This document shows positions 5,322-31,507 of a stretch of DNA of 32,000 nt, in pieces. The notes beneath the pieces were generated by a model that was not told the DNA's origin, searched no databases, and was given only the letters and a program-made list of their open reading frames with translations. Position 1 is the stretch's first letter, and each line of letters opens with the position of its first letter. A program made the translations under genes and the position numbers. The stretch covers positions 12,289 to 44,288 of the forward strand of contig DAIQOR010000005.1 in assembly GCA_036787775.1 (NCBI GenBank). Direction: 5' to 3'. Source of the DNA: a bacterium. GTDB lineage: Archaea > Nanobdellota > Nanobdellia > Pacearchaeales > GW2011-AR1.

Positions 5322-5945
5322 TCACTCGCTGAATGATTCCTCACTATAATCAATGTGTATTAAGTATGATTTTTCCAATTGAGCATAGTCCAACAATCTT
5401 TTACATTTAATTTTGTATTCTACATTACTTGGTTTTTTATCTTTCTCATAAAGCAACATAATAAAAGTTCCGAGATATCCTGAATTATAATCCTCTAATT
5501 TTTTGTTAAATTCAGCATTAAAGTCCCCGTCATAATATTCCAAGATATTACAAAAAGATTCGCCATTTGACTCTTCAGTAAAGATATGTAAAAATAACCA
5601 TCCATATCCTTCTTCTAATTCGCCACCCTCAGTATACTGATTAAGTGTTTTATATACTTTTAATGTTTCTTCACTAGGGTGTTTTGTGCCTATCTGATTT
5701 AGCCCATCTCTATCTGCATAAACATAAAAATCAAAATCTTCCAATTTGTTCTCTTCCTCATCACTATCACAAATATTATTTGAATTTCCATCTAAACAAC
5801 AAGAATTTCCAACTTTTATATAAGGAAAATTACAAGTTATTTCATTATTAGAATTATCGTTCGAATCAGGAATAAAAATAATTCCAAGAATAACTAAAAC
5901 AACCAGAACGCCAATTCCTACCAAAATATAATTTTCCTTTCCCAT
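5322..5945 (-). CDS. hypothetical N-terminally anchored extracellular protein
   Basis: 207 aa with one N-terminal TM segment (YILVGIGVLVVLVILGIIFI) followed by a Cys-rich stalk (CNFPYIKVGNSCCLDGNSNNICDSDEE). Confidence 0.5.
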   Translation of the reverse strand: MGKENYILVGIGVLVVLVILGIIFIPDSNDNSNNEITCNFPYIKVGNSCCLDGNSNNICDSDEEENKLEDFDFYVYADRDGLNQIGTKHPSEETLKVYKTLNQYTEGGELEEGYGWLFLHIFTEESNGESFCNILEYYDGDFNAEFNKKLEDYNSGYLGTFIMLLYEKDKKPSNVEYKIKCKRLLDYAQLEKSYLIHIDYSEESFSE

Positions 5946-6254: not shown

Positions 6255-6806
6255 TTAGCTCAATTTATCTAAAAATTGCTTTATCCCAATTATTTTTAAA
6301 TTAAATTCTTTTGATAAACTTTCCATTTTTCTAAGCTGATTGTCCTTCGTTATAAAAAAATCACATTTATTTTTCTTCGCTTGTAAAATTAAGATTATAT
6401 CCATAAATCCAAAGCCTTTTTTAGAAAGATTTTCTATTTTTTTAAAATCTTCCTTCGTTAAATCTTTAGTTTCTCTAATGCAATATTTCCATATATCAAA
6501 AACTGCTTGACTTACTAATTTATTTTCTTCCGAAGTTAAAAATATTTCTTTTCTTGCATCTCCAAATTCTCTCGTAGAATATCCAGATTCTACAAATTTT
6601 TGTTCCAATCTTATAAATCTAACAACATTTCTTAATTCAAGTTTACTCCATTGGCTCATAACATTAAAAAATTTCCCTGATTCAAAACTATCTAATAATT
6701 CCTCACTTCTCTTCAAAGGAATGGGAATATTTTTCTGTTTATCCCTTTTAGAATAAATTAAAAAAAAATTCACCAATACACATGTATCCAACATTACCTT
6801 ATACAT
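6255..6806 (-). CDS. PIN-domain protein (putative VapC-like nuclease with an insertion)
   Basis: 183 aa. It has an N-terminal MLDTCVL (first PIN acidic residue), an internal FMDIILILQA, and a C-terminal FFITKDNQL (the T.D motif). Confidence 0.5.
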   Translation of the reverse strand: MYKVMLDTCVLVNFFLIYSKRDKQKNIPIPLKRSEELLDSFESGKFFNVMSQWSKLELRNVVRFIRLEQKFVESGYSTREFGDARKEIFLTSEENKLVSQAVFDIWKYCIRETKDLTKEDFKKIENLSKKGFGFMDIILILQAKKNKCDFFITKDNQLRKMESLSKEFNLKIIGIKQFLDKLS

Positions 6807-9566: not shown

Positions 9567-10346
9567 TTAAAAAGAAAACCTGAACCCAAATTCCATTCCA
9601 TAACTACCAATATCTATTTTTGTATCTCCTTCCCCAATATTCACTGAACTATATTTAAGTTGAAGATAAGCAAAAGATTCAAACCCGACCATGCTCATGA
9701 ACCCCGTTCCAGAATCACTAAAATCTTCTGAAATTGAAGTATTATCCATACAATATCTTTTAATTAAACAACTACCATCTCTCACCTCGCCATCAATACT
9801 TTCCTTAACGGTCGCATTTACCAACCCTCCTCCAAAATAAATCTTAAAATCATCTTTAATCTTATGAGTATAAACTCCCAAAAATTCAAGTTGAGTGATA
9901 GTCAAACTTGCTTCATCAATAACATAATCACCAAAATCCTCATCTCTGATTATATTATTTGAATAATTAAGCCCCATTTCAAACCGAAACCTCGGATCAA
10001 AATTATACCCAGAAGAAATTCTAAATCCAGTTTGATCCCCATAAAATTTATCTATATCACTATCATTAAATTTCCCCAAAGGAGAAACCCCAAAAGAAAT
10101 GTGAGCTTTTTTTCTATTTTCATCTTCAGAATTTTGTGCTTCAGTTTTATTTGAATAATTAACATTTGTTCTCTGATCCTCGGGCACAACAGCTTCATCT
10201 GAACTCTCAACATATCCCTCCGGAGCATCAGTTCTAAAAGGCATTATCAAACTTCTATCTCCAGCAGAAGCACTCGGCAAATAACTAACAACACCAATCG
10301 CTCCAGCAACACCGACACTTAATAATTTCTTAACTAATCCATTCAT
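9567..10346 (-). CDS. secreted protein resembling a bacterial 8-stranded outer-membrane beta-barrel (OmpA/OmpW/PF13505-like)
   Basis: The track ORF is 9567..10367 with a non-ATG start. The likely start is the internal ATG (MNGLVKKLLSVGVAGAIGVVSYLPSASA/GD, a signal peptide), because a shared TATA box lies at about 10369-10376. The protein shows repeated amphipathic strands (FRFEMGLNYS, LEFLGVYTHKI, FKIYFGGGLVNA, FAYLQLKYSS) and ends in ...YGMEFGFRFSF, a terminal aromatic signature. Confidence 0.5.
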   Translation of the reverse strand: MNGLVKKLLSVGVAGAIGVVSYLPSASAGDRSLIMPFRTDAPEGYVESSDEAVVPEDQRTNVNYSNKTEAQNSEDENRKKAHISFGVSPLGKFNDSDIDKFYGDQTGFRISSGYNFDPRFRFEMGLNYSNNIIRDEDFGDYVIDEASLTITQLEFLGVYTHKIKDDFKIYFGGGLVNATVKESIDGEVRDGSCLIKRYCMDNTSISEDFSDSGTGFMSMVGFESFAYLQLKYSSVNIGEGDTKIDIGSYGMEFGFRFSF

Positions 10347-10368
10347 AAAATAAAAAAAATAAAACACT

Positions 10369-10376
10369 ATTTAAAC
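10369..10376. promoter_or_regulatory. shared TATA element between the divergent OMP-like gene and bud32
   Basis: tatttaaa is centred about 24-26 nt from both the Bud32 ATG (10397) and the internal ATG of the minus-strand gene. Confidence 0.45.
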
Positions 10377-10396
10377 ATAATTATATTCAAAAATAT

Positions 10397-11007: not shown

Positions 11008-11679
11008 TTAAAATACACTTCTTTCAGTTAATAATCTTGTACTAAATCTTTTCTCGAGCATATTACAAACATCTAAAACAACATTACCTAAACATCTCTG
11101 TTTATTAAAATCAACTCTCCCAAGATTAATCCAACCTTCCCCAAATTTTCTTTCACCAACATAGGAATTAATATCTCCAATGGAATAAATCCATTCAACA
11201 AAATGCCTATCTATTAAAGAATCAGGAACAATAGATAAGGTATTTACATCACTACCATCAATTTCCATTTTAGCATCCAAATATAAAAGAGAAATAGAAT
11301 TCCTTTGAGAATTCGGGAGTAAAAAACATTCATGAAAAACACCTATATTTTTCCAAATATCATTTTCCTTTAAAGAAACATCATAAGGAGATAACACAAA
11401 AGAAACAGCGTCATAAAGATTAGGATTAGATTCTGCTTTTCTCAAAACTTCTCCAATAAACGAATTGTCATTCTTCGGTTGAAGTATAATTCTCCCCCCA
11501 TATTTAAATTCAAAAGGGTGTTCTTTATGAACTTTCAACAATTGAAATGTTGGAAAATAAACACTCCCTTCATAAGGGGAGTCTTCAAAACAAAAAGACT
11601 TTCTTCCTTTTGTTAAAACAAATCCTTCTTTAATATCTTGACTATAATGAGCAAGTTCGCCATCAATTTGTTCCCACAT
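11008..11679 (-). CDS. hypothetical protein (ORFan cassette 2 next to tRNA-Leu)
   Basis: 223-aa ORF with no family recognised. It has its own TATA-like box about 27 nt upstream, inside repeat unit X. Confidence 0.5.
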   Translation of the reverse strand: MWEQIDGELAHYSQDIKEGFVLTKGRKSFCFEDSPYEGSVYFPTFQLLKVHKEHPFEFKYGGRIILQPKNDNSFIGEVLRKAESNPNLYDAVSFVLSPYDVSLKENDIWKNIGVFHECFLLPNSQRNSISLLYLDAKMEIDGSDVNTLSIVPDSLIDRHFVEWIYSIGDINSYVGERKFGEGWINLGRVDFNKQRCLGNVVLDVCNMLEKRFSTRLLTERSVF

Positions 11680-17200: not shown

Positions 17201-18820
17201 TTATCTATTCTTCCAAGCAACTCCACCACCTATAGTAGCAGCCAAAATTACTAACACAATTATTATAATCATCCAAGGCGCACTCTTCTCTTCGTCTGGA
17301 ACTTCTCCAGAAGTCACAATTTCTCCAGATGTCTCAACTGCAGAACCTTCAGCCTCAACAGGAACTTCCTCATAAACTTTCATAATAGTTAAATCTGCTT
17401 TGTTATTCACAATCTCATTCAACTTAACATATACATCATAATAACCATCTTCATTTACATCAACACTTACATCCTCTCCAGCATTCAACTCAACTTCAAT
17501 CGGTGTGCTCGCAACTTCTACAACAACACTATCAGATTTAATCTCTTTAATACCAACATAATGAGTTTCTTTTGAACCACTTGAAAATCCCTCCGAATAA
17601 ACTTCAACCTTAATTCTTTCCTTTACTTTCATTTCTTTGGTGTATCCTTCTGTACTAACCAATTCACTTTCCAAAGGAGAATAAGTCATACTCCAAGAAG
17701 TCGAAGAAGAGCCTCCAGATGAAACTCCAGAACTTGAACAATCAGTTGTTGAAAAAGAAGTTGAAGATGATGAACCACTATTGCCGGCAGAATCTGTACA
17801 AGTCACAATATAATTGTAAGGAGTACCACAAGCCAACCCAGACTCAGTAATTGTTTGAACATTTGTTCCAGAACCAGCAGTAACTGAAGCACCAGATCTA
17901 TCAATGGTACAGGAACTACTTGTAAGAGTAGCATCCGTAACTGTGGAAGTTAAAACTAACGTATCTATAGTTGCACTTGAAGAAGTTAAAACAACAGAAG
18001 GGGAAGTATCATCTACCCTGAAAGTAATATTCCAACTACGATTGGATAAACTAATATCAGTTCCAGAAGTTCCCATAAGAGTATCATTAACTTGAACGAT
18101 TAAAATTACAAGACCATCTGGAAGAGTTGAAGTAATCATTGTTGCATTATAATAACTTGTAGAACCTTGCCGAGAAGCAGTGAGAGTCTGATTTTGAACT
18201 CCAGCACTATTAGTAATATTAAATATCACAGTATCGGGCAAATCTTCTGTAATAGAAAAATTTAAAACTACATTTCCAGAATAATTTCCATTTACAACCA
18301 AAGAAGTTGTCGAAATACCAGTAGGATAAGAAGAATCATTTACATAAAGACTAATATTCCCACGTGTTATCAGAGAAGTTTTGTTATATACATCAATAGT
18401 AATATTAAAATTACCAGCAGTAGCAGCACTAATATTTACCCAAAAAGTACCATTATTCAAAGTACTATTCATCAAAATATATCTAGAATCATTAAAAAAA
18501 GTAAGAATACGATTTACAGAATCATAACTCATATTTTTTGTTAAACTTGAAGCATTACTAGTTAAGTTCAAAGAAACCCCAACAGGAAAAGTAATATTAA
18601 CCCAAGTAACATTATTGGAAGCATCCAAAGTTAAATTAACGGAAATATTAACAATATCATAAACATCTTCTCTAAGAGTAAAATTAGTTGCACCATTAAA
18701 AGATGTAAACGTACTCGCAAAAACAAATCCTAACAAAACTACAACTCCAACTAAAAATAACCCTACAACAACCAAATCACTCTTCGCTTGTTTATCCATT
18801 TTAATCATCTCTTTTTTCAT
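17201..18820 (-). CDS. surface (S-layer-like) glycoprotein with a C-terminal membrane anchor
   Basis: 539 aa with an N-terminal hydrophobic signal/anchor, about 20 or more N-x-S/T sequons by eye, Ser/Thr-rich linkers, and a C-terminal TM plus basic tail (WMIIIIVLVILAATIGGGVAWKNR). Confidence 0.6.
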   Translation of the reverse strand: MKKEMIKMDKQAKSDLVVVGLFLVGVVVLLGFVFASTFTSFNGATNFTLREDVYDIVNISVNLTLDASNNVTWVNITFPVGVSLNLTSNASSLTKNMSYDSVNRILTFFNDSRYILMNSTLNNGTFWVNISAATAGNFNITIDVYNKTSLITRGNISLYVNDSSYPTGISTTSLVVNGNYSGNVVLNFSITEDLPDTVIFNITNSAGVQNQTLTASRQGSTSYYNATMITSTLPDGLVILIVQVNDTLMGTSGTDISLSNRSWNITFRVDDTSPSVVLTSSSATIDTLVLTSTVTDATLTSSSCTIDRSGASVTAGSGTNVQTITESGLACGTPYNYIVTCTDSAGNSGSSSSTSFSTTDCSSSGVSSGGSSSTSWSMTYSPLESELVSTEGYTKEMKVKERIKVEVYSEGFSSGSKETHYVGIKEIKSDSVVVEVASTPIEVELNAGEDVSVDVNEDGYYDVYVKLNEIVNNKADLTIMKVYEEVPVEAEGSAVETSGEIVTSGEVPDEEKSAPWMIIIIVLVILAATIGGGVAWKNR

Positions 18821-22663: not shown

Positions 22664-22996
22664 CTAACTTTTCAAAAAAGAACAAACTTCATTGAGAATA
22701 TTTGAAAAAGAATTTTTATTTAAACTTCCAATTTTATATTTTATCAAAGATTTTTCTATTGATGCAATTTTATCTATTCTAACAAAACTATCTCTTTTCA
22801 AAGAACCTTTCAAAAAATCTTTTTCTTTAATCAAAACTTCAACAGATTTTTCATAAGAAGATCCTGTTATTTGAAGCACAATTAAATCATCTCCTTTGGG
22901 GCATTTCAAAACCAAAACAGGTCTTCTCTTAACTCCAATTAAATTAGAAAAAGGAAAACTCACAACAAGCAAATCTCCAGCTACAAATCTCTCCAC
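22664..22996 (-). CDS. mazF: MazF/PemK-family type II toxin
   Basis: 110 aa. AGDLLVVSFPFSN....KRRPVLVL ... IVLQITGS ... VRIDKIASIEKSLI matches the PemK fold pattern. It overlaps the upstream antitoxin gene by 16 nt. Confidence 0.75.
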   Translation of the reverse strand: MERFVAGDLLVVSFPFSNLIGVKRRPVLVLKCPKGDDLIVLQITGSSYEKSVEVLIKEKDFLKGSLKRDSFVRIDKIASIEKSLIKYKIGSLNKNSFSNILNEVCSFLKS

Positions 22997-24616: not shown

Positions 24617-27600
24617 TTACAATTCAACATTCTCAAACAAACTTCCCTTCAAACACAAATCACCATCAAAATCAATATAACTCATGTTTGTGAAAGTTGA
24701 ATCTTGAATAATAAAAGCATCTCTTGAAGGATTACACGTCGCTGATTGATCTGAACAATCTCCAGTCACCAAACATAAATCTCCTGTAGAATTAATAAAA
24801 GCTACATTATTGTTTGTTGAATTTCTTATAATAAAACTATCTGCCCCAGGAGAATTACAAGTTCCTCCCGAAAAACAACTTCCTGCTAAAACAATATTTC
24901 CTTCATCTCCAAACCATGCGACAATTTCTCCTAAAGAATTTTTATGAGTGAATTTGTATGTATCGGGTAAAACAAAATTACATGCTAAATCACAATTTCC
25001 AGTTCCCGCAACGATGCCCTCACATCTTGAATCTGCAGTACATCCAGAATCAAATGTACTATTTCTACAAACATTATCTCTATCTTCCCCTCCAGCTACG
25101 GAAGTGCATTTATCTGCAAAATAAGGTTCTCCAGAAAAACAAGTTGTTATATTATCTCCTGTTGTTTTTCCATCACACAAAAATTCGTCACAAGAACAAC
25201 CTGCCTCAGCACATTCAAATACAGAAGTAATATCTTGATAAGAACATGTAGAACTACATTCATCTTCGTAGTAAGAAGTGCCTGAACATAAATTAAGGTC
25301 ATCTCCAGTCTGTCTTTCGTCACAATTTACATGACCCGAACCAATTGAGTATTCACAATAGCTTGTCTCTTGCCCATCAAAATAAGTATTGTAAGGAGTA
25401 AAACACCAACCATCATCTCCCAACCCAACTCCATCATCATCACAATATCCCGAACTACATTGAGAATCACTTATACATGATTGACCATTTGATTTATCAC
25501 TAACACAATCCCAATTTGACCAACTACTACTTTTATCACAATACTGATTCGCAGAACAATCACCATCATCAAAACAATTTAAGACATAAATGGAATTACC
25601 TACCCCATAATTAGGACTAAAAGGATACCACCATATCCAACAAGCCTGTTCAAGGGTATCATCATAACCAAGAATCTCATTGCGATAAGCTGTTCCAGGT
25701 GCAGTAATAGTAACCATCGTATCCTCATCATTTATTTCGTCACAATCACACCCTCCATACTCACAATCATAATCACCATCGCAATCATAATACATCTGCT
25801 GAGCATCAACATCTTTCCACCCTATTTTATATTCATCTATAACATAAGGGTCCCAAGCATCATTTACAGCACCCCATTCAATATCATTAACATTCTCATA
25901 TAAATTTTGAGCGATACTTACATCACAATCTTCATAAGAAGATTCTATACAAAACTCATATCCAGATTCTTCACAATCTTCAACTGGTGCTTCTTCCTCT
26001 TCACAATCCTCATCATAAACACACTGGCTTTCAGTTGCACATACATCGGGAGTACAATCTCTCGTCCATTGCTTTTGACTAGCACTACAACTTCCTCCTC
26101 CACATGAACCTTCTGACCAGCTACTGCAACTACAACTTGTAACATCAACCCATATTGGATTTGTATATGCTCTTCTTCCAGTATCAGTGTAAACTTCAAG
26201 TCTAATATAATCATCACTTGTATCTAAATCTATATCAAAAGAGCCAGAATAAGTGTCATCAGATACAGGGATATAATCATAGAATTGATCATTTAGATAA
26301 ATATAGATATAAGTTATATCACCAAATTCTCCATTACTTGACGCACTGATATCTAAGGTGTTAATTCCTGACATTGCATCAACCACACTTCCAATTATGT
26401 TCCCATCAAGGGTGAATTGCACAAATGGACCTGTAGATGCAATGCAGTGTCCATCTTTATAAGATTCTCTTATCGCACTTGTTGTAAGAGTTTCAGAATC
26501 TAAATAACAATAAGTGAAGGTATGTCCTACCTCGCTAATTTGGTGTGCATCACTTCCTGCTATGCCGACTATAAAACCATTATCGGGATTTGTCTCAGCA
26601 ATAAGTAAATCTTCCCATTGATTAATTGTTTCTTGGTCACCCCCTTCAAAAATCCCATCTTTAGCATTAATAAGTTCCAACCCAGAATATCCTGTAACTG
26701 ACCAGTCTTCCCAATTTAAATAATAAGGGAATCCATCATAGGGATGGGCAATAAAACCAATGCCTCCTGCATTCTCCACCTCATCTATTACATCTTGTGC
26801 ATCACGACAACCACTATTCCAAAACGTACAAGTTCCGTCAATATAACCCAAATTATCATCTGAAGAAGGATGAGTTAAATAATGGGCAGCATCGTTGATT
26901 CCAGGAGCATCAACAGCCATTTCCTGACCATACAAACATTTGAATGATGAAGTGCTGTTTCCAACACATGAATTATATCCTCCATTCCATTCTTCACTAT
27001 CGAGATAGTTGCTATGGTCTGTAAAAATAACCCAATCTAATCCCTCACTAATACTCTCATCAATCATCTCTGATAATGGAACAGATCCATCATAAGCTAT
27101 ATCTGTATGCATATGCTGGTCACCCACGTACCACCCAGGAGAATTGTGTGGGGGCGTTGGTAAAGGCTCTGAAATAAGGATTGTATGATTTATTTCAACG
27201 ATATATTTTTTATGATTATAATAAATTTTAAGTTCTAAAGGAATTATAACTATGTCCCCCACATTTAAGGAATCACTAAAATCATTTATATTCAAATAAA
27301 AAGCTTTTGAAAAACTTTTGAATCTAACTTCGTTTCTTAATCTTTTTAGCTCTAATTTATTTTCTAAAGAGCTCAATTTTAAACTATCTAAGCGATCTAT
27401 TTGCTCTTTAACAGGAAGAATATTTTTATTTATTGTAAATTCTCTTATCTTTTCTTTTTTGGGAGAGATAATTTTTATTTTTTCAATAGAAGCGTTGTCT
27501 TTCCCTAAATTCGTTATTGTAGGTTTTATAATAAAAATATCTCCAGAACGTAGAGCACTTGAACCATCAAGAGTTATATTTAGAAATGAAATTTCCTCTT

Positions 27601-27676
27601 CTGAGTTTTGTGCATAGGTAAGAGGGACAAGTAATATTAAAAATATCAAAATTAATAAAAAATTAGTTTTTATCAT
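24617..27676 (-). CDS. large secreted protein: signal peptide, Ig/CARDB-like domain, PHP (CehA/McbA-like) phosphoesterase domain, beta-rich domain, and a ~500-aa Cys-rich region with a triple C-terminal repeat
   Basis: 1019 aa. Signal peptide: FLLILIFLILLVPLTYA/QN. PHP metal-ligand motifs: WYVGDQHMHT, DWVIFTDHS, GFIAHP and GSDAH. About 46 Cys (hand count) lie after residue ~515. The C-terminus repeats the motif (V/S)(A/Y)(W/F/I)(F/I)(G/N/D)xxG(N/D)(I/L)(V/C)L three times. Confidence 0.7.
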   Translation of the reverse strand: MIKTNFLLILIFLILLVPLTYAQNSEEEISFLNITLDGSSALRSGDIFIIKPTITNLGKDNASIEKIKIISPKKEKIREFTINKNILPVKEQIDRLDSLKLSSLENKLELKRLRNEVRFKSFSKAFYLNINDFSDSLNVGDIVIIPLELKIYYNHKKYIVEINHTILISEPLPTPPHNSPGWYVGDQHMHTDIAYDGSVPLSEMIDESISEGLDWVIFTDHSNYLDSEEWNGGYNSCVGNSTSSFKCLYGQEMAVDAPGINDAAHYLTHPSSDDNLGYIDGTCTFWNSGCRDAQDVIDEVENAGGIGFIAHPYDGFPYYLNWEDWSVTGYSGLELINAKDGIFEGGDQETINQWEDLLIAETNPDNGFIVGIAGSDAHQISEVGHTFTYCYLDSETLTTSAIRESYKDGHCIASTGPFVQFTLDGNIIGSVVDAMSGINTLDISASSNGEFGDITYIYIYLNDQFYDYIPVSDDTYSGSFDIDLDTSDDYIRLEVYTDTGRRAYTNPIWVDVTSCSCSSWSEGSCGGGSCSASQKQWTRDCTPDVCATESQCVYDEDCEEEEAPVEDCEESGYEFCIESSYEDCDVSIAQNLYENVNDIEWGAVNDAWDPYVIDEYKIGWKDVDAQQMYYDCDGDYDCEYGGCDCDEINDEDTMVTITAPGTAYRNEILGYDDTLEQACWIWWYPFSPNYGVGNSIYVLNCFDDGDCSANQYCDKSSSWSNWDCVSDKSNGQSCISDSQCSSGYCDDDGVGLGDDGWCFTPYNTYFDGQETSYCEYSIGSGHVNCDERQTGDDLNLCSGTSYYEDECSSTCSYQDITSVFECAEAGCSCDEFLCDGKTTGDNITTCFSGEPYFADKCTSVAGGEDRDNVCRNSTFDSGCTADSRCEGIVAGTGNCDLACNFVLPDTYKFTHKNSLGEIVAWFGDEGNIVLAGSCFSGGTCNSPGADSFIIRNSTNNNVAFINSTGDLCLVTGDCSDQSATCNPSRDAFIIQDSTFTNMSYIDFDGDLCLKGSLFENVEL

Positions 27677-27977: not shown

Positions 27978-29248
27978 TTATAAAATCTCCGAATGATTCT
28001 CTCCCGATGCTTCAGTATAATGTGCATCACTTCCAGCTGTTCCTCGAATAAAACCATCAGAAGGATTTGTTTCTTCCTCTAAAAATTCAACCCAAGAATC
28101 AGTAACTCCTCCCGGGTTATTTATTGCAAGCGCATCATCTCCACTAAATCCCCCATTAATAATTTCTAATCCCGTAAAACCAGTAAGTGACCAGTTCCAA
28201 TCAAACATATCATTATGAGGATGTGCAACAAATCCTATTCCACCCGCATTAGTTATTTCATTTATAACTACCTGCTCATCATCACGACACTCACATTGAA
28301 ACCATCCACAATATCCATCAACATATCCAAGATCATCATCATCATCAGAACTTGGATGAGCTAAATAATGACGATTTTCCAAAGTATCACACACCAAGGA
28401 ACCTCGCCGATAGACATCTCCTGACCATATAAACATTTGAAAGAACTTGTAGACTCTGAATCACAAGCATCACGCCCATCTTCCCATTCAGATGCTTCTG
28501 AAAAAGCAACACTATGATCTGTAAAAATTATCCAATCCATCTCAGACGCTTTCGCAGCATCCACCATATCATCAAGAGGATCTGGAGTTTCGGCAAGAGT
28601 AGAACCAAACTCACTATGAACATGCTGATCTCCAACATACCAACCAGGAGAATTATGTGGAGGCTTTGGTAACGATTCAGAAAACAAAACCGCCCTTTCT
28701 CTACGAACAACATATTTCTCACCATCAATCTTAAACTCAATGTCAATTGAAATATTAATTAATTCTCCAATCTCCAAAGTATCATCAAAATCTCTTATGT
28801 CTAATCTAAAACTTTTTTTAAAAGTTTCATTTTTAATTTCAGAAATAATTTTTATATATTCTTGATATTCTGGCTGTTCTTCAGTTAATCCAGGAATTTC
28901 ACAAAATTCTGGTTTCTGTAAATAATCTCTTATTTCTTCCTCTCGTTTAAGAATTTTCTTCAAAGATTTAATTTCTTTATTAATATCCTCTGCCTTAATT
29001 ATTTTTTTACCATCGTTTAATATTGTTACTTTTTTAATATCCAGTGTTAAATTTTCATTTAAATTTCTAATTGTTATCGAAGCTGGAAAAATATTCCCTG
29101 TTCTAATTACCGACGAACTATGAAACTCTACAAAGATATCAATATCTTCGCTTGGTTTTGATGCGGAGATCGTGGAAATGTTCAAAACTATAACTAAAAC
29201 AAGAATTGCTATTAAAAAATTTGTGCACTTTCTTTTATTGATTTTCAT
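27978..29248 (-). pseudogene. frameshifted, shorter paralogue of the secreted PHP protein
   Basis: Track ORFs 28361..29248 and 27978..28436 overlap in different frames. Together they align with residues ~1-400 of the 1019-aa protein (PPHNSPGWYVGDQHVHS, DWIIFTDHS, FKCLYGQEMS | HYLAHPSSDD, GGIGFVAHP, GSDAH). The frame change is near 28400 (...GQEMSIGE / GSLVCDTLENRHYLAHP). Confidence 0.65.
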
Positions 29249-29726: not shown

Positions 29727-30548
29727 TTAATCAAATAATTCCTTAAAAAAATTAATTAACCTTTCTAAAAAAATTAATTTCTCTTTGGATTCTTGCGAAA
29801 GAATAACTACCGAATCCGATTTTATTATTTGATTTTCGCTTACACTTTCTTCAATAATATCCTCGCAACGTGAAAATTTTCCAGGGTTGTCTTCATCACA
29901 TCCATCAAGATCATTTCCATGCCCTTTATCGTCTTTTTCAACATCTTCTTCAACTACCTCAATAGTCTCTTCAATTTGATTTTGAGATTCTTCATCCTCA
30001 AGAACTTCTTCACTTACTACATTTCCACTAATAGAATTTTGTTCAGTATTTCCATCAACAATAATTGTCTCATAATTTGAAACACTTGAAATTGCCAAAT
30101 CTTTATTACTTATTTTTTTGATAGAAAAATCTGCAGACCTAACAGTTCCATATCTTCCTCCTTTAATTATCTCATCCAATTCAATAATTATATCTTTTGC
30201 ATTATCCCCATTTAGATCTATTCTCCCAGATTCTTTAAGATTTAATCTAAATATGTCTTCAATAATCTCATATGCTGTTATATCTTCTAAATTATTTTCA
30301 TCTAAATTCATAACAACAAAATCTACATACCCCTCTTTCACTCTTCTTAATTGTATTGCATACCATTGTTTTTCAAATTCAAATTTCAATCTTCCTGGAG
30401 TCATATCATAAGTATTTCCTTGTTCAGTCAAACTTATGGTTGAAATGGGTATTGTCGCCCCTCCTCCAGAGCTCGCATCAATAATATTTAACATTCCGAT
30501 TATAAAAAATAAAACTCCAAATACCAAAAATTTATTTCGATTTCCCAT
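29727..30548 (-). CDS. secreted protein with an acidic C-terminal half
   Basis: 273 aa. Signal peptide: FLVFGVLFFIIGMLNIIDA/SS. The central module resembles the membrane-proximal module of the 17201..18820 surface protein, followed by a Glu/Asp-rich region. Confidence 0.5.
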   Translation of the reverse strand: MGNRNKFLVFGVLFFIIGMLNIIDASSGGGATIPISTISLTEQGNTYDMTPGRLKFEFEKQWYAIQLRRVKEGYVDFVVMNLDENNLEDITAYEIIEDIFRLNLKESGRIDLNGDNAKDIIIELDEIIKGGRYGTVRSADFSIKKISNKDLAISSVSNYETIIVDGNTEQNSISGNVVSEEVLEDEESQNQIEETIEVVEEDVEKDDKGHGNDLDGCDEDNPGKFSRCEDIIEESVSENQIIKSDSVVILSQESKEKLIFLERLINFFKELFD

Positions 30549-30640: not shown

Positions 30641-31507
30641 ATGAAATCAAAAAGAGGTTTTCAAAAAAGATTCTTAGAAATTTTAAACAGCAAGCCGATT
30701 ATAGGATTATTTATTTTTTTAATTCTTGGCATAGCAATGGTCGTCGCTGGTGATGTTGTTGTTAAAGAGGGCGATATGGATATTAATAACGGACTAATCG
30801 TAAATGATATATTATATGTTAACACTACCAATAATAATGTGGGAATAGGAACAAATTCTCCCCTTAGTGGAATTAAATTGGATATTGATGGTCAAACGAG
30901 ATCAAAAAATTCAATATTGTGGAGCCCTTCTGCATCAGGCTGGGTAGCTCAACTAAAATTTATGACAATGGATGGACTCTCAACTCATCATGTATTTTTT
31001 ATAGATAGGGGAGATAATGATAGATTAAATTTAGATTTGAATCGGAATGGAACTTCAGAAGATATAATGAGAATTAGAGGAGGAATTGATATAGATGATA
31101 GTTTAACAATTGATAATTATTTAGGAGTTGGTTTAACAAATCCAAATCAATCAGTAGATGTAAATGGAAATGTTCAAGCATTGGATTTTATAACTATATC
31201 AGACAGAGAACAAAAAGATAATATTAAAGAATTAAATGTCAACGAAGTTTTTTCATCAACACCAAAACTTTATGAATATCAATTCAAAAAACAAGTTCCG
31301 GTTTATGACGAAGATGAAGAAAATGTATTAAGTTACACAACCGAATTAATGCCTCCTCAAGTTGGATTGATGATGGATGAAGTTCCAGAAGAATGCAGGA
31401 AAGGAAAAGGTGTTGATAATTATTGCATGCTTTCTTTGGCTTACACACAAATAATAAGTTTACAAAACGAACTTTGTACAAAAGATAATTCTTATAGTTG
31501 GTGTTGA
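30641..31507 (+). CDS. membrane-anchored tail-fibre-like protein with a C-terminal S74 intramolecular-chaperone (endosialidase chaperone) domain
   Basis: 288 aa with an N-terminal TM segment (IIGLFIFLILGIAMVVAG). NNNVGIGTNSPLSGIKLDIDGQ and LGVGLTNPNQSVDVNGN match the (V)GIGT..P...LDV.G fibre repeat. ISDREQKDNIKEL...LYEYQFK...VGLMMDEVPEE...LSLAYTQIISLQNEL matches the SD.R.K.NI ... Y.y ... GliAqEv ... peptidase S74 pattern. Confidence 0.65.
   Translation: MKSKRGFQKRFLEILNSKPIIGLFIFLILGIAMVVAGDVVVKEGDMDINNGLIVNDILYVNTTNNNVGIGTNSPLSGIKLDIDGQTRSKNSILWSPSASGWVAQLKFMTMDGLSTHHVFFIDRGDNDRLNLDLNRNGTSEDIMRIRGGIDIDDSLTIDNYLGVGLTNPNQSVDVNGNVQALDFITISDREQKDNIKELNVNEVFSSTPKLYEYQFKKQVPVYDEDEENVLSYTTELMPPQVGLMMDEVPEECRKGKGVDNYCMLSLAYTQIISLQNELCTKDNSYSWC

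Follow-up and report, generated by a model that had tools for sequence, protein, structure and literature searches.

We find that an archaeal chromosome carries, between its genes for SRP54 and a Bud32-type kinase, a gene whose product is by Pfam's criterion a member of OMP_b-brl, a family of outer-membrane beta-barrels. The gene was analysed within a stretch of 32,000 nucleotides (contig DAIQOR010000005.1), the whole of which we call the window, and it belongs genuinely to the chromosome of a DPANN archaeon of the Pacearchaeota type. Transmembrane OMP-type barrels are commonly regarded as characteristic of the outer membranes of bacteria, mitochondria and plastids, and of the Omp85/BAM machinery; neither an outer membrane nor BAM insertion machinery is known from these archaea.

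We suggest that the product is an OMP_b-brl barrel that leaves the archaeal cell through Sec and inserts into a membrane independently of BAM, and we hold this account, taken whole, to be somewhat better than an even bet. By analogy, its most likely function would be that of a BAM-independent membrane-inserting anchor or adhesin. The N-terminal signal peptide would direct Sec export; the barrel would then fold by itself, without BAM, into a lipid bilayer outside the archaeal cell, most plausibly the membrane of a partner or host cell, or a vesicle; and the variable external loops would provide the anchor or adhesin role, as in the bacterial relatives. Opa, NspA, Ail, OmpX and AcfA are bacterial adhesins, and a role at the surface or in partner contact is suggested because the gene is patchily distributed, its loops diverge rapidly and its nearest relatives are of the adhesin type. 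In vitro, small OMPs fold into bilayers of their own accord, without BAM (PMC7383365). Their spontaneous insertion in vitro is slow when the membrane is native and not thin.

A related possibility, though a doubtful one, is that the barrel is built into another cell's membrane, either by the BAM of a Gram-negative host reading the retained C-terminal beta-signal or by self-insertion, and acts there as a plug or adhesin in episymbiosis. If true, this would give Archaea their first functional transmembrane beta-barrel OMP, and DPANN archaea a new way of attaching to their hosts.

The gene and its product

The OMP gene occupies 9567..10346 on the minus strand, from an ATG at 10346 to a stop codon at 9567-9569, and encodes 259 aa. 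A GTG at 10367 would give a longer product of 266 aa (ORF 9567..10367, minus strand), and is an unlikely start because it falls on the TATA region; we rejected it for that reason and consider the ATG at 10346 the likelier start, which keeps the A/T-rich promoter region intact and yields the same 259-aa product that independent gene callers output.

Residues 1-28 (MNGLVKKLLSVGVAGAIGVVSYLPSASA; 10263..10346, minus strand) form a predicted signal peptide. Read directly from the sequence, the N-terminus has an n/h/c layout that passes from K6K7 through LLSVGVAGAIGVV to A-S-A at positions -3 to -1 and on to G29, before which the signal peptide would be cleaved, and a GL[VI][KR]K motif at the N-terminus is common to all members of the archaeal family, which comprises the window protein and two homologues, P0003 and P0004. 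An acidic linker of 46 aa follows (residues 29-74; 10125..10262, minus strand; 10 D/E and 4 K/R); it is probably disordered and is missing or short in both homologues. The remaining 185 aa (residues 75-259; 9570..10124, minus strand) are the beta-barrel domain according to the PF13505 match, the hhalign alignment to NspA, the AF2 model and Foldseek, and the mature protein is about 20 kDa. Its strands are b1 (81-93), b2 (105-115), b3 (120-137), b4 (141-164), b5 (167-188), b6 (204-223), b7 (226-237) and b8 (244-259). The long b5-b6 loop holds Cys193 and Cys199 (9762..9782, minus strand), a C-x5-C insertion specific to the window protein among the three, in which a disulfide is possible. The C-terminal strand ends in GMEFGFRFSF (9570..9599, minus strand), with alternating aromatics and a terminal Phe, so that the protein as a whole closes with ...SYGMEFGFRFSF. 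Its G(-6)/R(-4)/F(-1) pattern is also present in NspA (AGVRVKF), and a C-terminal aromatic is shared by the window protein (...FGFRFSF) and P0003 (...VGVRF), whereas P0004 ends ...IGLRTPL.

Between the OMP gene and bud32 lies a divergent intergenic region of 50 bp (10347..10396, unstranded) with a palindromic TTTAAA at 10370-10375. Because this element stands about 25 nt from each of the two divergent ATGs, at 10346 (minus strand) and 10397 (plus strand), a single TATA element plausibly serves both genes. The layout is matched in locus L020, which carries P0003, where TATATAAATA is centred at about 5497 and flanked by ATGs at 5471 and 5525; in locus L031, which carries P0004, a TTATAA lies about 28 nt upstream of the OMP-gene start. 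As sequence features, these spacings in the three loci fit the archaeal TATA distance with leaderless transcripts.

Sequence profiles and the structural model

The Pfam search matched residues 71-257 to positions 12-175 of the 175 positions of PF13505, OMP_b-brl, with 38.3 bits against a gathering score of 28.7 (E 2e-9), that is, 10 bits over Pfam's curated cutoff. The reversed sequence, a control that preserves composition and hydrophobic alternation, and nine shuffles of the window protein gave zero OMP-family matches, even at E<=10. The NCBIfam AcfA-family OMP model (NF033908) matched at 19.4 bits, below its cutoff of 100; Pfam Opacity (PF02462) had no match at E<=10, and OmpW, PagP and PagL were likewise unmatched in the Pfam search. 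P0003 and P0004 each give OMP matches of their own, below threshold (PF13568, E 4e-4; PF13505, E 2e-4, with DUF481). An established OMP_b-brl example is OprH (2LHF), a small eight-stranded barrel of the Gram-negative outer membrane (PMC9581022). The window protein resembles the family in its signal peptide, eight amphipathic strands and C-terminal aromatic, and differs in its archaeal host with no known outer membrane or BAM, its 46-aa acidic linker and its lack of a pairwise bacterial relative.

The closest similarity by profile is to the NspA/Opa group (1P4T, 2MAF; PF02462), which gave the best matches both between profiles and between the family profile and the PDB. An NspA-family alignment was built from database matches to the NspA sequence, the query being checked against 1P4T; against it, the archaeal family aligned with E 6.5e-5 and a probability of 64% in hhalign, over 122 columns that reach the C-terminus on both sides, where the archaeal alignment comprised three divergent members only and its conservation statistics are weak. 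The reversed archaeal alignment gave E 0.2 and a probability of 0.3%. A MAFFT alignment, made independently, matched all eight strands to NspA, and the conserved R and E that face inward on the last strand fall into register. The likeness extends to the C-terminal G-x-R-x-x-F and to Foldseek TM scores of 0.52-0.60 against 1P4T; on the other side, sequence identity is 16-22%, the hhalign probability is the 64% given above, Pfam Opacity is unmatched and the loops are unrelated. PDB sequence searches with the three single proteins (window protein, P0003 and P0004) returned nothing significant, and the search with the three-member family profile returned Neisseria Opa60 as its sole match, at E 0.85.

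From the single sequence, AF2 gave an uninformative model (pLDDT 33). With an alignment of the target, the two archaeal homologues and 29 NspA-family proteins it gave eight long antiparallel strands (pLDDT 85.7, pTM 0.78), a model that is not independent of the homology hypothesis, since OMP sequences were in its alignment. Foldseek matched this model to 29 PDB entries at E<=1e-3, every one a bacterial outer-membrane beta-barrel and none a soluble sandwich or lipocalin. The best matches were the OmpA transmembrane domain, Ail, OmpX, NspA, the OprF N-domain and OmpW (TM 0.5-0.64), with OmpX, Ail and the OmpA N-domain (1QJ8/1QJ9, 3QRA, 1BXW) as top structural neighbours at E 6e-8 to 7e-7. The C-terminus of OmpX (...VGYRF) also resembles that of P0003 (...VGVRF), but OmpX and OmpA have no significant sequence-profile similarity to the archaeal proteins (hhalign to the single sequences, probability 3% and 1%). 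In the sequence, the hydrophobic and aromatic residues of the strands lie on one face: in the membrane-proximal halves, the outward positions are F/F/M/L/Y in b3 and Y/M/F/F/F/F in b8, and the inward positions R/E/G/N in b3 and S/G/E/G/R/S in b8. Across the three members, insertions and deletions are confined to the long loops (b1/b2, b3/b4, b5/b6 and b7/b8) and to one turn, b6/b7. The original prediction, made from the DNA letters, had claimed a signal peptide, about eight amphipathic strands and a C-terminal Phe, and all three were recovered, in the n/h/c layout with A-S-A before G29, in the eight strands of the model and of the NspA alignment, and in the ...FGFRFSF terminus; the family assignment it proposed is upheld by a PF13505 match above the curated cutoff, and the model, judged by its eight strands and its Foldseek matches, is a barrel rather than a soluble sandwich, albeit from an alignment that held NspA homologues.

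The structural matches could point to a different use of the barrel, in handling lipids or other hydrophobic molecules. DPANN archaea depend on host lipids, which they are not known to make themselves, and a secreted barrel of the OmpW, PagP or PopA kind might extract or channel the lipids of a host; OmpW, OprG and PagL are among the Foldseek matches. A bacterial predator is reported to use a porin-like family of eight-stranded, lipid-trapping barrels, for which Altiarchaeales offer a possible DPANN precedent, again in a setting of cell-cell predation or symbiosis (PMC12228718). PopA belongs to a different superfamily, however, and Altiarchaeales are reported to be diderm whereas Pacearchaeota are not. 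We regard a lipid-handling barrel as unlikely, since in sequence the window protein stands closest to adhesin barrels of the NspA/Opa/AcfA type and the lipid-associated families OmpW, PagP and PagL went without a Pfam match.

It is also quite unlikely that the OMP assignment is a false positive and the protein a soluble, secreted, beta-rich sandwich or lipocalin-like barrel. This reading draws on the want of any pairwise homologue beyond the three archaeal proteins, on the insignificant PDB sequence searches and on the NspA relatives that seeded the alignment behind the AF2 model. Against it stand the loss of every OMP match when the sequence is reversed with its alternation kept, the margin over the Pfam cutoff, the independent matching of OMP families by all three members, the end-to-end strand register with NspA with its conserved inward R and E, and a count of zero soluble folds among the 29 top structural matches.

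Relatives and distribution

P0003 and P0004, which come from two further Pacearchaeota MAGs, were first found by synteny: their genes occupy the interval from SRP54 to bud32, on the opposite strand. P0003 has 214 aa and P0004, on a 175-kb Pacearchaeota contig, has 190 aa. They are 24-33% identical to the window protein, against 71-74% for the adjacent SRP54, and resemble it in signal-peptide motif and in the register of the strands. When the single protein was queried against 5.8e9 proteins in a word-indexed search, it matched only itself, and no relative was confirmed in scans of GTDB genomes, JGI metagenomes and IMG/VR that used protein or family patterns. Among the billions of proteins searched pairwise and by profile, no bacterial relative came closer than the Pfam profile, and no bacterial donor was identified.

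Two further candidates were set aside. An exhaustive phmmer search of 1.84e9 representatives returned the protein itself and P0002, a 2474-aa tandem-repeat protein whose score was summed over 10 weak repeats and which we judged spurious. The one addition from the search with the three-member profile was P0005 (125 aa; L132:358-735, on a 778-bp ENA contig). It has the same signal peptide (MKGLIRKVLAPLAIAGTLFA, which almost matches that of P0003) and a different mature part, a small beta-rich domain ending ...EIEIGIEW, and we rejected it as a family member; from its sequence, it may represent another secreted beta protein with a common export signal. A further beta-rich ORF was seen at L002:8806-9612 (minus strand), directly downstream of bud32 in a Pacearchaeota MAG; it encodes 269 aa with a signal peptide, ends ...ATINLK, and has no Pfam match and no HMM similarity to the OMP family.

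The OMP gene lies near SRP54 in three of about 120 related SRP54 loci. In a neighbour-joining tree of SRP54 the three carriers are scattered, and the nearest neighbours of each are without the OMP gene. Gene order varies among them: SRP54-OMP-bud32 in the window, SRP54-OMP-VKOR-bud32 in L031 and SRP54-VKOR-bud32'-OMP-bud32 in L020. The L020 copy of the gene lies within 843 bp that are flanked by a direct repeat of 100 nt, a duplication of the 5' end of bud32; the two copies (L020:4672-4771 and L020:5515-5614) are 82% identical, with their first ~50 nt identical, and the upstream copy encodes a truncated Bud32 fragment of 51 aa. From its sequence, the repeat looks like the footprint of recombination or insertion. 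Because its carriers are patchy, its gene order variable and its L020 copy flanked by this footprint, we conclude that the OMP gene is a rare, fast-evolving accessory cassette of the SRP54-bud32 interval. A bacterial origin is probable on the basis of family distribution, because OMP_b-brl is overwhelmingly bacterial. The gene would have reached Pacearchaeota from Bacteria long ago, or would have evolved fast since, and recombination in the conserved SRP54-bud32 interval would now carry it from one member of the Pacearchaeota to another.

The small VKOR-family membrane protein of these loci (PF07884, E 3e-15 in L020) is encoded at L020:4288-4680 (plus strand) and L031:8040-8477 (plus strand), adjoining the OMP gene in both. 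VKOR-like ORFs also occur in L005, L023, L024, L026, L027 and L030, and often lie in the SRP54-bud32 interval; the window has no VKOR gene there, yet its OMP protein has the C-x5-C loop.

This distribution bears on the option, raised in the original prediction, that the barrel belongs to an archaeal double-membrane envelope. Ignicoccus and Ca. Altiarchaeum are diderm archaea, and the window protein, a barrel of OMP type that has a signal peptide and a C-terminus resembling a beta-signal, is such as a native second membrane of Pacearchaeota, served by a BAM-like machine or by another, might contain. Diderm archaea including one DPANN lineage have been reported (PMC8871954), and it has been suggested that Altiarchaeales have a distant barrel of the PopA kind (PMC12228718). 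A core envelope protein would be expected to be widespread, however, and this option is weakened because the gene is present in only three of the roughly 120 closely related loci; profile searches of 5.8e9 proteins gave no further members, and no Omp85/POTRA protein was found in the 32-kb window, a small sample of the genome. We rejected a native outer-membrane core component, for which the gene is too rare, and consider this role of the barrel very unlikely.

Could the gene be a relic of an earlier transfer that has lost its function and is on its way out of the genome? Its great rarity, and its extreme divergence between lineages when set beside the much higher identity of the neighbouring SRP54, would be in keeping with such decay. 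We consider it highly improbable, since the three ORFs, of 190-259 aa, have stayed intact in AT-rich genomes, with signal peptides, strand register, inward charged residues and glycines kept, indels confined to loops, and, in each of the three loci, a TATA-like element as far from the start codon as would be expected.

Genomic context and assembly integrity

The archaeal flanks and equal base composition claimed in the original prediction were both confirmed. Neighbours in the window include SRP54, a Bud32-type kinase, Gins51, FtsY, aIF2-alpha, RadA, RPA and a DHH/Cdc45-like protein, and the window SRP54 is up to 82% identical to proteins of Candidatus Pacearchaeota, Woesearchaeota and Nanoarchaeota MAGs. 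The OMP gene has a GC content of 0.34 and a GC3 of 0.22, its synonymous-codon likelihood falls within the range of the 24 other window ORFs, and it is spaced from SRP54 by 14 bp and from bud32 by 50 bp. The identical gene with the same neighbours, and thus the same SRP54-OMP-bud32 joins, recurs on at least 22 contigs of JGI, ENA and NCBI assemblies from different samples and assemblers, the longest recorded being 380 kb; it is indexed in 37 blocks of the collection, with the same neighbours at all places listed, and its population copies are all identical save one G12V variant. A chimeric assembly, or an archaeal bin contaminated with bacterial DNA, was considered because OMP genes are typical of bacteria, and no evidence in favour of either was seen. 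Both are effectively excluded by these contigs, by the homologues at the corresponding place in two further Pacearchaeota MAGs (one on the 175-kb contig), and by the window-typical codon usage, tight spacing and putative shared promoter region.

Two loci with SRP54 proteins 67-84% identical to that of the window, L035 (JAHYJW010000004.1) and L041 (JBBUJJ010000064.1), are labelled 'Patescibacteria group bacterium'; bud32 is adjacent to SRP54 in L035, and both are probably archaeal contigs misbinned into CPR MAGs. Elsewhere in the window, two PHP-domain ORFs (24617-27676 and 28361-29248, both minus strand) have no other recognised domains, one of them being 1019 aa long with a Cys-rich stretch that weakly resembles Dickkopf_N. 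A MazF/PemK-type toxin ORF (22664-22996, minus strand) and a weak PIN-domain ORF (6255-6806, minus strand) suggest toxin-antitoxin elements in a small genome. Four ORFs of 223-539 aa, at 17201-18820 (minus), 11008-11679 (minus), 29727-30548 (minus) and 30641-31507 (plus), match no Pfam family at E<=0.1, save that the one of 539 aa faintly hints at Big_13. Almost every 1-kb bin of the window (1-32000) has a negative GC skew (cumulative -6.9), independently of gene orientation.

Implications

A literature search brought up no discussion of OMP_b-brl proteins from Pacearchaeota or from any other monoderm archaeon. NCBI automatically names a partial copy of the gene product (MBS3076496.1) 'outer membrane beta-barrel protein [Candidatus Pacearchaeota archaeon]', and our results imply that labels of this kind in archaeal MAGs are not necessarily a sign of contamination. 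The window protein is small and should be easy to express and refold, and the three natural variants of the archaeal family form a comparison set. That an OMP which is not an artefact exists in a monoderm-type DPANN archaeon raises the questions of whether a barrel can assemble free of BAM in vivo, and in which membrane, and of whether this protein is part of the apparatus by which Pacearchaeota contact their partners.
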